From Gemmatimonadota bacterium (GTDB lineage Bacteria > Gemmatimonadota > Gemmatimonadetes > Gemmatimonadales > GWC2-71-9), in assembly GCA_039589275.1 (NCBI GenBank), contig JBDHHP010000070.1:1-19328 (forward strand): a stretch of 19,328 bases of DNA. The letters run 5' to 3'. A program made the translations under genes and the position numbers. Shown here piece after piece: positions 10,566 through 13,014 of this stretch. Below the pieces are notes generated by a model that saw only the letters and a list, made by a program, of their open reading frames with translations, was not told the DNA's origin and searched no databases. Each line of letters opens with the position of its first letter. Positions within the stretch are counted from its first letter, which is position 1.

Positions 10566-11675
10566 TTAGATGTGAGCTGTGCGACGTCCCAGTAGGTTCA
10601 TCCGGGTGCTGCGCACCGTTGCAGGCTCGACCACCCGTCCGTCACTGAAGCGGAAGCGAAGGGCATCATCTGGGCATTGGACCACGCACGCCCCACATCG
10701 AATGCACTTGCTCCGCCCGGCTAACTCGACTCGCCGCAACTTCCCGTTCATCTGCAATACACCGCGTGGGCACACCTGAACACATTCGCCGGATCCGCTA
10801 CACCGATTGTCTGCTAGCTCGACTTCGAACTCATTCCCAAGGGAGTTAACGCCGCCAGGATACCAGGGCGTCGTTCCCGTGAGATCCAGGGAGAGGACGG
10901 ACATACCGCCGACAGACACGATTGCCAGTGCGAGAAGGGATGCTCCGCCTAGCTCACCGAGCAAGGCCAAAGCGCCGATGCCGGTCGCGAACCCCAACAC
11001 GGCGGTGGCACCATAGGTCAGCAACCGTCCGCGTCCGGTTACGCTCACCCAGGGTAGCGCCGCAAAAACCGCCGAAACCATGAGAACAGACACCGCTGCC
11101 GCGACCAGTCCTGCATGCCAACCCACTGAGAATCCGACGGCCAGAACGGCGATCAACATCATCAGCACCGTCCAGACGAGTGCCATTTCCATCCGCTCCC
11201 AGAGCGGAAAGCGCATGAGGCGGTGTGCCTTCCTGACCCGCTGCCCCCGGTCAAGGAACTCCGGCAGATCTTCGAGTCGGGCCGGCCCCCACCTCGCTTC
11301 CCAACCCGTGGCCTCAGTGATCTTGCTCCTTTCGATGCCGCTGGCCGAGAGTTGCGGGAGCACTAGGCTCCTATGTCGCACGAGCTGACCAATCCCTGAG
11401 GCACGGATGGCCGCGATAACATCGTGGTGCGTGAGATGGCCTCCACCAGCCGCACACCAAACATTGATGCCGTTGCTGTTCGCCACGAGCAACCAAGCGT
11501 CGCGCCCGGTTAACGCCTGCTTCACCCTCCGAACAGTCAGTCTGAAGTTGCCGGTTACCAGTACCGGTGCACTAGGTCCTGGTCGACCGATGCGATCGAG
11601 GCCGTGCGGGGCAGCATGGGGAAACAGCCGCAGCACCGTGTCACGAAGCCATCCTGGGAACTCACGCGCTTTCAT
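10566..11675 (-). CDS. Fused HgcA-like corrinoid domain + 4-TM domain + HgcB-like ferredoxin domain
   Basis: SAPVLVTGNFRLT..GRDAWLLVANSNGINVWCAAGGG..VRHRSLVLPQLSASG..WGPARLEDLPEFL is collinear with the HgcA corrinoid domain and its cap-helix motif N(V/I)WCA(A/G)GK. Four hydrophobic helices span aa 162-262. LDLTGTTPWYPGGV follows. The C-terminus carries CSGSGECVQVCP and CIRCGACVVQCP. Strong GAGGAGGAG Shine-Dalgarno upstream. Confidence 0.85.
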   Translation of the reverse strand: MKAREFPGWLRDTVLRLFPHAAPHGLDRIGRPGPSAPVLVTGNFRLTVRRVKQALTGRDAWLLVANSNGINVWCAAGGGHLTHHDVIAAIRASGIGQLVRHRSLVLPQLSASGIERSKITEATGWEARWGPARLEDLPEFLDRGQRVRKAHRLMRFPLWERMEMALVWTVLMMLIAVLAVGFSVGWHAGLVAAAVSVLMVSAVFAALPWVSVTGRGRLLTYGATAVLGFATGIGALALLGELGGASLLALAIVSVGGMSVLSLDLTGTTPWYPGGVNSLGNEFEVELADNRCSGSGECVQVCPRGVLQMNGKLRRVELAGRSKCIRCGACVVQCPDDALRFRFSDGRVVEPATVRSTRMNLLGRRTAHI

Positions 11676-12318
11676 GCTGCTCCTCCTCTTTCACCCCGCT
11701 CACGATCGAGAACGCACCAGATGAAAGCCGCTCCTCCTCCACCGCCACGAATCCGGCCTCACTCAGCTGCTCTGCAAGACGCTGAACCGGTCGGGTGGTG
11801 GTCTGCGTCAACACGAACGTGAGCAGGGCGACTGGTAACCGACCTAACCGATACCAGAGGCGGCGTACACGAGTACGCGGTAACACCTCGTCAGCGATGA
11901 CGATCGTTCCTCCAGGTCGCAGTCGGGAGTACACGACGTTGAGTACGTAGGACTGCTCCTCGGGCGAGAGCTCACTGAAGGTGATACACGAGGTGACCGC
12001 GTCAAACGCATCCTTGGCAAATCTGTCTTCGATCTCCATTGCGCTGAGTTCGAGCCACTCCACGCTCCCAGCGGACGGGCAGCGCTTGCGTTGAGCTATT
12101 TCGAGCATACCGGGACTGATGTCGATCCCGACCACGTCGGCCCCACGAGCCGCGCAGGCAAGCGCAACGGCACCGGTTCCGCACCCAACGTCGAGCACGC
12201 GCTTCCCCCGCGCCGCCACCCGCTCCGCCAAGTGCTCATACACTCGGCCGATCTTGCCACGGGAGAGCATGCGAATTCCCCGATCGTACCGCGCCGGACT
12301 CGACTCCAGCAGCCTCAT
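11662..12318 (-). CDS. Class I SAM-dependent methyltransferase, translationally linked to the HgcAB-like gene
   Basis: SAM motif I is VLDVGCGTGAVALACAARGADVVGIDISPGML; post-I/II motifs are LRPGGTIVIADE. The stop overlaps the downstream start region by 14 nt. I prefer ATG 12318 (or GTG 12336), because the ORF extension to 12444 overlaps tetR. Confidence 0.85.
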   Translation of the reverse strand: MRLLESSPARYDRGIRMLSRGKIGRVYEHLAERVAARGKRVLDVGCGTGAVALACAARGADVVGIDISPGMLEIAQRKRCPSAGSVEWLELSAMEIEDRFAKDAFDAVTSCITFSELSPEEQSYVLNVVYSRLRPGGTIVIADEVLPRTRVRRLWYRLGRLPVALLTFVLTQTTTRPVQRLAEQLSEAGFVAVEEERLSSGAFSIVSGVKEEEQHESA

Positions 12319-12335
12319 GTACAGGAACGTGCTCA

Positions 12336-12956
12336 CTAGACCTCTCCAACGGAGGGAGCACTGCGAGCAGCGCCGTCCAGAAACGTCGTCACCGCAACGT
12401 CGGGGATCTGCTCGAGCGGAGGCCACACTCCACCGGTGCCCCAATGCTGCACAAACATCAACGACAGGATGCCGACGAAAAGCACTGCGAGTTCCGGGAT
12501 CGGCCTGTCGCTCCGGATCTGTTTCGCCGCGATGCCTTCCTCTAGGATTTCTGAGACTTTGGTTACAAACGGAGTAAGATGCTCCAGAATCAGGGGGAAC
12601 GTCTCGGGACGAAAGCTCATCGCTTCCCGCACCAGCACTTTCATGAAGCCCTCTTCTTCCCGCAGCACAGCGACATCGGCCGCCGCCAGAGCCCGTAGTC
12701 GCTCCCGCACCGAATCACCTGCCTCGGCGGCGTCATAGCGCGCCACTGCTCGAAAACAGGCCTCCTCGATCACTGCCGCGAAGAGCCGCTCTTTGCTCTC
12801 GAAATAGTTGTAGAGCGTGCCCTTTGCGAATCCCGCAGCGAGCGAGATGGCGTCCACGTTGGCTCCGTCGAGACCGCGTTCGGCAAAGTGGGTCGCAGCA
12901 GTTTCCAGAAGGCGTTTTCTCACGCCCTCCTTCGCCCTAGCACTAATCCGTGGCAT
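12336..12956 (-). CDS. TetR/AcrR-family transcriptional repressor
   Basis: The N-terminal HTH is RKRLLETAATHFAERGLDGANVDAISLAAGFAKGTLYNYFESKERLF. It is the first gene of the three-gene minus-strand operon. Confidence 0.9.
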   Translation of the reverse strand: MPRISARAKEGVRKRLLETAATHFAERGLDGANVDAISLAAGFAKGTLYNYFESKERLFAAVIEEACFRAVARYDAAEAGDSVRERLRALAAADVAVLREEEGFMKVLVREAMSFRPETFPLILEHLTPFVTKVSEILEEGIAAKQIRSDRPIPELAVLFVGILSLMFVQHWGTGGVWPPLEQIPDVAVTTFLDGAARSAPSVGEV

Positions 12957-12959
12957 GTG

Positions 12960-13014
12960 ATTATTGTGGGTGACCAGTCACCCATAATAATATTCCCGGC
13001 TGCTTCCATGTCAA
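12960..13014 (-). promoter_or_regulatory. Near-consensus promoter overlapped by a 15-bp-arm inverted repeat, the likely TetR operator
   Basis: The minus strand reads TTGACA (13014-13009), 16 nt, then TATTAT (12992-12987). The inverted repeat attattgtgggtgac-ca-gtcacccataataat (12960-12991, 14/15 matching) overlaps the -10 box and ends 4 nt from the tetR ATG. Confidence 0.7.

Follow-up and report, generated by a model that had tools for sequence, protein, structure and literature searches.

A CpaM/HgcAB-like operon beside mer genes in a Gemmatimonadota bacterium: a candidate methyl-transfer cassette with a predicted TetR operator

The stretch of DNA considered here, in the following called the window, comprises 19,328 nucleotides (nt) from a Gemmatimonadota bacterium (GenBank assembly GCA_039589275.1, contig JBDHHP010000070.1). 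On its minus strand, to which all coordinates of the operon refer, three genes lie head to tail (12956-10566) and encode a TetR-family repressor, a class I S-adenosylmethionine (SAM)-dependent methyltransferase and a protein of 369 amino acids (aa) that resembles a fusion of HgcA and HgcB. A first-pass annotation, made by reading the sequence without database searches, had pointed out these features, and we found all of them to be present. The first gene, tetR (12336..12956), codes for a repressor of 206 aa with the Pfam domains TetR_N (1.4e-13) and TetR_C_24 (2e-7). It is preceded by a sigma-70-like promoter (12987..13014) composed of TTGACA (13014-13009), a 16-nt spacer and TATTAT (12992-12987), which is the sole site within 8100-13200 matching 11 of the 12 consensus positions; a scan of the same region revealed no terminator-like site downstream of the 369-aa gene. 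The second gene, cpaM (11662..12336), codes for about 224 aa. Its longest open reading frame (ORF) starts with TTG at 12444, but this start is improbable because the match to the CpaM profile begins only at residue 39 of that ORF; most likely the true start is GTG 12336, which has the Shine-Dalgarno sequence GGAGAGG at 12347-12341 and overlaps the tetR stop codon as TAGTG. The third, hgcAB-like gene (10566..11675) begins with ATG 11675-11673, 4 nt behind the Shine-Dalgarno sequence GGAGGAG, and the cpaM stop codon (11664-11662) lies 14 nt inside it, which puts a figure on the overlap noticed at first reading. The three genes form one translationally coupled operon.

The encoded proteins were scored against NCBIfam models with their curated cut-offs and against Pfam. 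The 369-aa protein reached 388 bits with the model HgcAB_like (NF043039, cut-off 285, E 5e-116), its residues 9-340 covering profile positions 3-350 of 350. It stayed below the cut-offs for HgcA (NF040863, 162.2 bits against 275, the match ending at profile position 291 of 325), for HgcB (NF040864, 49.9 against 99) and for the gamma subunit of the corrinoid iron-sulfur protein CFeSP (NF003195, 69 against 306, profile positions 321-445 of 450). The methyltransferase scored 278.6 bits with the CpaM model (NF043040, cut-off 180), while other models matched it only at a generic class I level. Since both curated cut-offs are passed and those for HgcA and HgcB are failed, the two proteins can be classified by profile as typical members of the catalogued, functionally uncharacterised HgcAB_like/CpaM family, and the annotation names given in the first-pass annotation were the right ones.

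Pfam places CdhD at residues 19-138 (1.4e-13) and Fer4/4Fe-4S families at 288-344 of the 369-aa protein, and an AlphaFold2 model built on 22 relatives (mean predicted local distance difference test, pLDDT, 76.6; predicted template modelling score 0.70) agrees with the three parts originally proposed for this single ORF. The first part is a corrinoid-binding Rossmann-like domain (residues 19-145, 11241..11621), which is modelled with high pLDDT at residues ~20-145 and matches the CFeSP gamma structures 2h9a and 4c1n with an E value of 1e-10. It is followed by a transmembrane (TM) domain (residues 158-265, 10881..11204) of exactly four helices (158-183, 186-205, 216-238 and 244-265; pLDDT 81-95) ending in an invariant D-x-x-G-T-T-P-W, and by a ferredoxin domain (residues 283-345, 10641..10829) with the motifs CxxSxxCxxxCP and CxxCxxCxxxCP and no cysteine after the second. 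The top PDB match of the model is a deposited computational model of HgcAB (9a0b, E 4e-11, 29% identity over 294 columns), with CFeSP next.

The corrinoid domain carries the cap helix GINVWCAAGG (residues 69-78, 11471-11442), an HgcA-type motif as first read, with the codon of Cys74 at 11456-11454. Cys74 is kept in 81 of 81 relatives, the core NVWCAAG is invariant and the same as in HgcA, and the cap helix of the family can be written as GI(N/D)VWCAAGGG(H/Y)LT(H/D)H. Five metagenome-assembled genomes of Actinomycetota (L038, L041, L059, L060 and L066) have GIDVWCAAGGG, with Asp in place of an Asn that does not otherwise vary, be it in this family or in HgcA. For the ferredoxin domain the first description as a two-motif, HgcB-like domain holds in part: the second motif is canonical (C324-x2-C327-x2-C330-x3-C334-P), but the first one has only three cysteines (C292-x2-S295-x2-C298-x3-C302-P), position 295 being A, S or T and never Cys in 76 of 76 relatives. 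A motif that lacks the second Cys is typical of [3Fe-4S] sites, and the combination with a canonical second motif fits the pattern of a seven-iron ferredoxin by sequence. Distant HgcAB-like members (P0241, P0293, P0305, P0280 and P0299) keep two canonical motifs, so the three-Cys motif is a derived trait of a large, mostly bacterial subfamily. Another subclass of about 470-480 aa (P0287, P0289, P0297, P0299, P0300 and others) is longer at the N-terminus by ~150 aa; in P0299 the added part is strongly hydrophobic and probably contains several further TM helices, and the cap helix, NIWCASESGKFGT, is nearer to that of HgcA.

At least 1,406 related proteins were retrieved by a word-indexed search, a separate scan with one genome for each species yielded at least 559 carriers, and an exhaustive search of representatives gave 176 clusters at E <= 1e-30. 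The best 80 loci belong to Gemmatimonadota (including the closest one, at 86%), Myxococcota, Acidobacteriota, Alpha- and Gammaproteobacteria, Actinomycetota and Planctomycetota as well as to Thermoplasmata and Bathyarchaeia, with Allgaiera indica DSM 24802 as the one cultured isolate. A cpaM orthologue is located immediately upstream of the hgcAB-like gene on the same strand in 78 of these 80 species genomes; in the two exceptions the gene starts 8 nt from a contig end (L025) or has 929 nt of upstream sequence (L048). The survey of gene order that the first-pass annotation had called for is answered by this number, tetR being present in about a third of the loci. Where the overlap between the cpaM stop and the hgcAB-like start could be measured (72 loci), it is 4 nt long in 56 cases and between 1 and 14 nt in 66. 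Five representative proteins of 589-644 aa (P0273, P0280, P0293, P0305 and P0312) even combine a full CpaM (210-266 bits) and an HgcAB-like part (328-381 bits) in a single chain, each part exceeding its cut-off and in the order CpaM, corrinoid domain, TM domain and ferredoxin. As these fusions recur on independent contigs (the five members of the P0293 cluster on 15 contigs from JGI, ENA and Logan, P0305 on three contigs, P0280 and P0390 from two assemblies), they are not one-off gene-calling errors. In two of them a long linker is present, the HgcAB-like part beginning ~100 residues after a truncated CpaM match, and a simple frameshift at the ATGA overlap would not yield such proteins. The C-terminus of P0280 is rich in Cys (GCAC) and in this recalls HgcB.

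These Rosetta-stone fusions, together with the near-universal coupling, are the strongest evidence that the methyltransferase would act on or with the corrinoid protein. The SAM motif VLDVGCGTG (LDxGCGTG) of CpaM is conserved across 76 orthologues, and the segments LESxPxRYDxG, ADExxP and LTQTxTRP are conserved and specific for the family. Among solved structures, those nearest to CpaM belong to small-molecule O-, N- and C-methyltransferases (E 1e-13 to 1e-7). No ArsM-like Cys triad is conserved in the 76 orthologues, so CpaM shows no cysteine-based site of its own for binding metalloids. An identity as arsenite methyltransferase was rejected, as ArsM-type models scored far under their cut-offs and the conserved triad is absent. 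The literature, searched in full text for CpaM or corrinoid protein-associated methyltransferase, yielded nothing relevant.

Beyond CpaM and TetR the loci have little in common. Clustering of all neighbouring ORFs gave nothing else that recurs, and in a Pfam census of the nearest upstream (69 loci) and downstream genes (77 loci) no family was found in more than three loci. A conserved link to mer, ars or cobalamin genes was rejected on this basis, and the lack of any other recurring neighbour family suggests that the CpaM/HgcAB-like pair is self-sufficient. A tblastn search of the PLSDB plasmids gave no homologue. In relatives from JGI metagenomes (L081-L085, 33000410xx), which are ~85% identical, the hgcAB-like gene is called as 265 aa lacking the corrinoid domain and follows cpaM after a gap of 300 nt; an 'ATC_hydrolase' Pfam gene stands upstream in place of tetR, and 1.5 kb downstream there is a gene for a phage-type integrase.

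Upstream of tetR a palindrome covers the promoter, as had been seen from the sequence. The predicted TetR operator is the inverted repeat ATTATTATGGGTGAC-TG-GTCACCCACAATAAT (12960..12991), a 32-nt element with arms of 15 nt each (12991-12977 and 12974-12960, 14 of 15 positions matching) and a 2-nt spacer, which overlaps the -10 hexamer of the 11/12 promoter site and the predicted transcription start. In 26-27 of the 80 loci a TetR orthologue (E 1e-60 to 1e-80) is encoded upstream of cpaM. The operator core TGGGTGAC-NN-GTCACCCA, usually flanked by ATAT/ATAT, stands just 5' of tetR in 19 of the 27 TetR-bearing loci, from several phyla and archaea, and was found nowhere else in 91 related loci (1.16 Mb) when up to two mismatches in the core were allowed. 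In several loci a promoter of the form TTGAC(A/C/G)-17-nATAnT abuts the left half-site, like in the window. The TetR-bearing loci without the standard core are either cut off by a contig end or have permuted half-sites (L040, L058 and L079). In these three, TATGACC...CCCATAT-TATGGG...GGTCATA is found upstream of tetR instead of the usual ATGGGTGAC-NN-GTCACCCAT, and L029 has a shortened operator, ATATGGGTCTAGACCCATAT. Such variants in layout suggest that TetR and its operator may have co-evolved as pairs. With a TetR_N helix-turn-helix and a promoter palindrome that is conserved together with the protein, the regulator is predicted to bind this element. Comparison of the orthologues revealed no conserved Cys or His cluster in the TetR ligand domain. 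Control by a B12 riboswitch was considered and dropped: Rfam models matched nothing in the window, nor was a cobalamin riboswitch found in 17 loci lacking TetR.

To place the family next to the mercury methylase, a set of true HgcA was collected by motif: from 120 metagenome loci with NVWCAAGKGT we obtained 85 full-length HgcA that are not fused, and HgcB is encoded next to 58 of these. Over the corrinoid domain, the identity of the fused family amounts to ~40% with HgcA and to ~31% with CFeSP. A simple neighbour-joining tree of this domain, in which CFeSP served as outgroup, separated the fused family and 30 of the true HgcA as reciprocally monophyletic groups (85 and 86 of 100 bootstraps); in published trees, too, fused HgcAB proteins branch as a clade of their own next to HgcA (PMC10083202; PMC4646819). 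The CpaM/HgcAB-like family is, as far as profiles and trees indicate, a sister family of the mercury methylase HgcAB. An identity with HgcA itself, for which the first-pass annotation had suggested a check, did not survive it, with 162 bits against the cut-off of 275 and a position in the separate sister clade. The reading as CFeSP was rejected too, as a single domain, the C-terminal one of CFeSP, is shared (69 bits against 306).

Several residues set the two sister families apart. The diagnostic motif of HgcA, N(V/I)WCA(A/G)GK, contains the cobalt-ligating Cys (Capo et al. 2022, PMC10087281). The window protein has this Cys and the NVWCAAG core, but the final K of the HgcA cap helix (GINVWCAAGKGTFGT) is replaced by G, as in 76 of 76 relatives. 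It has four TM helices, homologous to the first four of the five in HgcA (Zheng et al. 2024, PMC11588087). While HgcB has two CxxCxxCxxxCP motifs, the window protein has one canonical and one three-Cys motif. In the true HgcB sequences that were inspected, a GVGC/GTGC segment follows the second Fe-S motif, and the window protein has no equivalent of the Cys73 of HgcB. A terminal Cys-Cys within the last 8 residues is present in 44 of the 58 true HgcB, whereas any Cys after the last Fe-S motif is found in only one of 76 relatives of the window protein and not in the window protein itself. HgcB Cys73 and Cys94/95 as well as HgcA Cys93 have been described as crucial for methylation (PMC11588087), and most HgcA also carry an N-terminal CU/CC motif (Haft & Gwadz preprint 10.1101/2022.07.06.499078). 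The latter is absent from the window protein, which has no Cys before residue 74 and is preceded by the sequence of cpaM. Conversely, no CpaM orthologue was found near hgcA in the 85 loci with true HgcA. HgcAB thus consists of two polypeptides without a partner methyltransferase and the system described here of one polypeptide with CpaM as partner; the homologous corrinoid domain, a ferredoxin as reductant and SAM as the likely methyl source would be common to both. Purified classical HgcAB takes the methyl group directly from SAM, which methylates Co(I) (Zheng et al. 2024, PMC11588087). The first-pass annotation had supposed that the methyltransferase loads the corrinoid and so replaces the methyl-tetrahydrofolate supply of classical methylators. 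The joint action is supported by the natural fusions, but the second half of this idea is outdated, as HgcAB itself uses SAM (PMC11588087).

Fused HgcAB proteins are known in the literature from P. furiosus, M. methylutens, Kosmotoga and Atribacteria. That Pyrococcus furiosus has such a protein without showing methylation had been stated correctly at first reading: P. furiosus and M. methylutens, both with fused homologues, made no methylmercury, and judging from names and published trees both would belong to the same NCBIfam family. Compared with other HgcAB-like proteins the window represents the subfamily with the three-Cys motif and an optional TetR with operator, and its mer adjacency is exceptional. 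CFeSP (AcsC/CdhE) shares with it the Rossmann-like corrinoid domain (Pfam CdhD; PDB 2h9a, 4c1n and 2ycl) and the loading by a separate methyltransferase, which for the window protein is predicted. The TIM-barrel domain and the small subunit of CFeSP have no counterpart in the window protein, the cap position of CFeSP reads SVLTAWAAGK without a cap-helix Cys where the window protein has Cys74, and CFeSP, unlike the membrane protein of the window, is soluble; it receives its methyl group from methyl-tetrahydrofolate and not from SAM. During the reactivation of MetH, Co(II) is reduced by a low-potential carrier and methylated by SAM to methyl-Co(III). This is the same three-component logic as would apply to ferredoxin domain, CpaM and corrinoid; MetH shows no sequence relationship to the window, however, and uses the SAM route as a repair path, its main donor being methyl-tetrahydrofolate.

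From these data we favour, with a confidence slightly above even, that the operon is a self-contained and TetR-repressed methyl-transfer cassette of the CpaM/HgcAB-like family, in which a methyl group would be relayed from SAM over cobalt to an acceptor. Without inducer, TetR would occupy the palindrome over the -10 hexamer and the transcription start and keep its own three-gene operon off until a small ligand releases it. The overlapping stop and start codons would then give three proteins in fixed proportion. Cys74 of the cap helix would be the lower ligand to the cobalt of a corrinoid bound by the membrane protein, and the C-terminal ferredoxin domain of this protein, which because of the four TM helices should be on the same cytoplasmic side as the corrinoid domain, would reduce Co(II) to Co(I). 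CpaM would bind SAM and methylate Co(I) to methyl-Co(III), from which the methyl group would pass to an acceptor reaching the cofactor at the four-helix membrane domain. The domain make-up, the gene coupling, the family membership, the conserved operator and the natural single-chain fusions are observed, whereas we infer that CpaM rather than the corrinoid protein would handle SAM, that the methyl group would flow in this direction and what kind of acceptor would take it. As for the presumed acceptor, Cys-on corrinoid chemistry suggests an electrophile beyond direct methylation by SAM enzymes, and it is probably not Hg(II) delivered in the way of HgcAB.

Some observations do not fit this proposal easily. 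Two thirds of the loci have no TetR, and the regulation seen in the window is therefore not general. The ferredoxin domain, on which the reduction of cobalt would depend, is modelled with low confidence (pLDDT 54-67), and the first motif of this domain, with its three cysteines, may hold a [3Fe-4S] cluster, which might not attain the Co(II)/Co(I) potential. As classical HgcAB uses SAM without any partner, the need for CpaM as a loader is not self-evident. A function independent of mercury also does not explain why merB is found next to the cassette in two arrangements, which are described below.

The corrinoid might instead serve reductive chemistry, for example the dehalogenation or dealkylation of a hydrophobic or halogenated toxicant, with CpaM and SAM only rescuing or priming oxidised cobalt, much like the reactivation of methionine synthase by SAM. 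Reductive dehalogenases, too, combine a corrinoid with two Fe-S clusters on a membrane anchor. The compounds sensed by TetR regulators are typically organic and often hydrophobic rather than metal ions, and the ligand domain without a conserved Cys/His cluster agrees with that. Many of the carriers belong to generally aerobic lineages, and cobalt would often need re-priming there. The idea was prompted by a preprint in which dechlorination of CCl4 by heterologously expressed HgcAB is described (2026, 10.64898/2026.04.26.720869). However, a methyltransferase that is stoichiometrically coupled and sometimes covalently fused exceeds what is needed of a repair factor, no dehalogenase-type similarity was found among the NCBIfam, Pfam and structure matches, and the Pfam census showed no electron-donor or halide-related genes recurring nearby. 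We therefore regard this explanation as rather unlikely.

Any link to mercury has to be judged from the neighbouring mer genes, which lie on the same strand 254 nt behind the hgcAB-like gene. The mer operon (8220..10312, minus strand) consists of merR (10312-9914, 141.5 bits), a homologue of DF-family (seleno)proteins (9900-9610), merT (9613-9272, 72 bits), a MerP-like heavy-metal-associated (HMA) protein (9254-8892) and merB (8882-8220, 178.7 bits). It has its own MerR-type promoter/operator (10342..10372, minus strand), in which TTGACC and TTACCT are separated by a 19-nt spacer with the perfect palindrome GTACCTAGGTAC (10364-10353). A 19-nt spacer with a central dyad is the established layout of MerR-family promoters, and with a promoter of their own the mer genes are a separate regulatory unit. 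No merA is present anywhere in the 19-kb window, and there is no ORF of more than 90 aa in the 740 nt after merB. A mer gene nearby was found only in L001 among the 80 species genomes and only in L001 and L212 among the 91 related loci. L001 is 87% identical to the window at the nucleotide level over tetR-cpaM-hgcAB-like up to the stop codon; its merB follows 113 nt after this stop, is 69% identical to merB of the window and has no merR, merT or merP at the junction. Relatives from one metagenome project at 71-86% protein identity have the gene pair but no mer genes. The merB linkage is confined to one lineage and occurs there in two arrangements, for which a small probability of a role related to organomercury has to be kept.

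It is accordingly quite unlikely, in our estimate, that CpaM and the HgcAB-like protein are a genuine mercury methylase tied to the mer genes and forming methylmercury or dimethylmercury from Hg(II). The NVWCAAG core with its Cys, the corrinoid domain nearer to HgcA than to CFeSP, the 254 nt to a merR-merT-merP-merB operon and the merB directly after the cassette of L001, at a different junction and with 69% nucleotide identity, would all fit such a function, and a negative culture assay is no proof that a fused enzyme is inactive (Podar et al.). Against it stand the failed HgcA and HgcB cut-offs and the separate clade, the G in place of the diagnostic K in 76 of 76 relatives, the absence of equivalents of HgcB Cys73, of the terminal Cys-Cys and of the N-terminal CU/CC, and the lack of methylmercury from P. 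furiosus and M. methylutens, if their proteins belong to the same family. In addition, mer linkage is absent in 79 of 80 species genomes and in the relatives at 71-86% identity, the mer genes have a separate promoter, and production of methylmercury beside merB would be a futile cycle. The first-pass annotation had named Hg as the obvious candidate because of the mer neighbourhood, a view that is not supported, given the mer promoter, the restriction to one lineage and the missing Hg-related Cys motifs. A broader version would see in the family an oxygen-tolerant counterpart of HgcAB that methylates soft metals or metalloids, Hg included, by means of SAM and a Cys-ligated corrinoid in aerobic soil bacteria and that was recruited here into a merA-less organomercury island beside merB. 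This idea we also hold to be improbable; if it were true, biology would have another, so far unrecognised way of making organometal compounds, and one that operates outside anoxic habitats.

With a similarly low probability CpaM could be the true catalyst acting on a small molecule and the HgcAB-like protein not the methyl carrier but an accessory, for example a membrane-bound redox or cofactor partner or a methyl sink. CpaM does look like an ordinary class I methyltransferase whose nearest solved relatives are small-molecule enzymes, and classical HgcAB needs no such partner, but the pairing in 78 of 80 loci and the fusions in several lineages speak for a joint task, a generic substrate does not explain LESxPxRYDxG, ADExxP and LTQTxTRP, and the partner, in which the cobalt-ligating Cys and the Fe-S ligands are invariant, looks more like a catalyst than a scaffold. 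That the operon is decaying cargo of a mobile element without a current function in its host is highly improbable, since its three ORFs are full length with all family-invariant residues as well as both Shine-Dalgarno sites, promoter and operator intact, even if genes for an integrase, a DUF3987 protein and an XRE regulator are found at a distance of 2.5-6 kb, the near-identical L212 has losses of ~79 and ~83 nt with broken gene calls and the 265-aa copy in L081-L085 is truncated.

The methyl-transfer cassette favoured here is not a new kind of system, because it is a typical member of an already catalogued family, and nothing in the analysis shows an unexpected function. New are the TetR/operator pair across phyla, the natural fusions of CpaM with HgcAB-like, the ferredoxin motif with three cysteines, the lack of mercury-handling Cys motifs throughout the family and the restriction of the merB linkage to one lineage. 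Surveys of mercury-methylation genes routinely come across fused HgcAB homologues and then leave them aside. The family is large and occurs mostly in lineages not known as anaerobic methylators, and its distribution, the CpaM partner and the missing thiol/selenol motifs argue that such genes should be excluded from mercury-methylation inventories. With a three-gene unit, a conserved operator as a possible ligand sensor and Allgaiera indica DSM 24802 as a cultured carrier the problem appears tractable. If the acceptor were a metal, a metalloid or a xenobiotic, the cassette would stand for a new SAM-to-corrinoid methylation chemistry in oxic environments.

L212 (GCA_039589755.1, JBDHGT010000250.1) is 99.7-100% identical to 7330-18285 of the window. 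It is missing ~79 nt at the cpaM/hgcAB-like junction (window 11722-11644) and ~83 nt in the TM domain (11005-10923) and has a 17-nt indel somewhere in window 18285-11723, and its gene calls for tetR, cpaM and the hgcAB-like gene are truncated. These differences either are artefacts of the assembly or mark an allele that is decaying within the same population.

The MerP-like gene (8892-9254, minus strand) contains a single in-frame TGA (9080-9078), placed exactly where the metal-binding motif has its first Cys (GMT-TGA-TGC). With this codon read as sense, the product matches the model for a 'UxxU metal-binding (seleno)protein' over its full length with 80.6 bits (cut-off 95) and MerP with 54 bits. 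The TGA may encode selenocysteine in a mercury-binding protein or be a nonsense mutation; a hairpin after the UGA, looked at as a possible selenocysteine insertion sequence, was no more stable than shuffled sequence (z 0.15). Signs of a mobile element extend over 13462-19328 and comprise a weak GIY-YIG-like ORF (13926-13462), an XRE-type helix-turn-helix protein (15422-16147), a DUF3987 protein (16473-17828) and a tyrosine recombinase that is cut off by the end of the window (18105-19328); the window contains no tRNA gene. On the other side two paralogous Ser/Thr protein kinases of 771 and 994 aa (1912-4227 and 4497-7481, plus strand), the first with C-terminal TPR-type repeats, converge on the mer operon, and an ORF resembling a dihaem cytochrome c is located at 673-1611.

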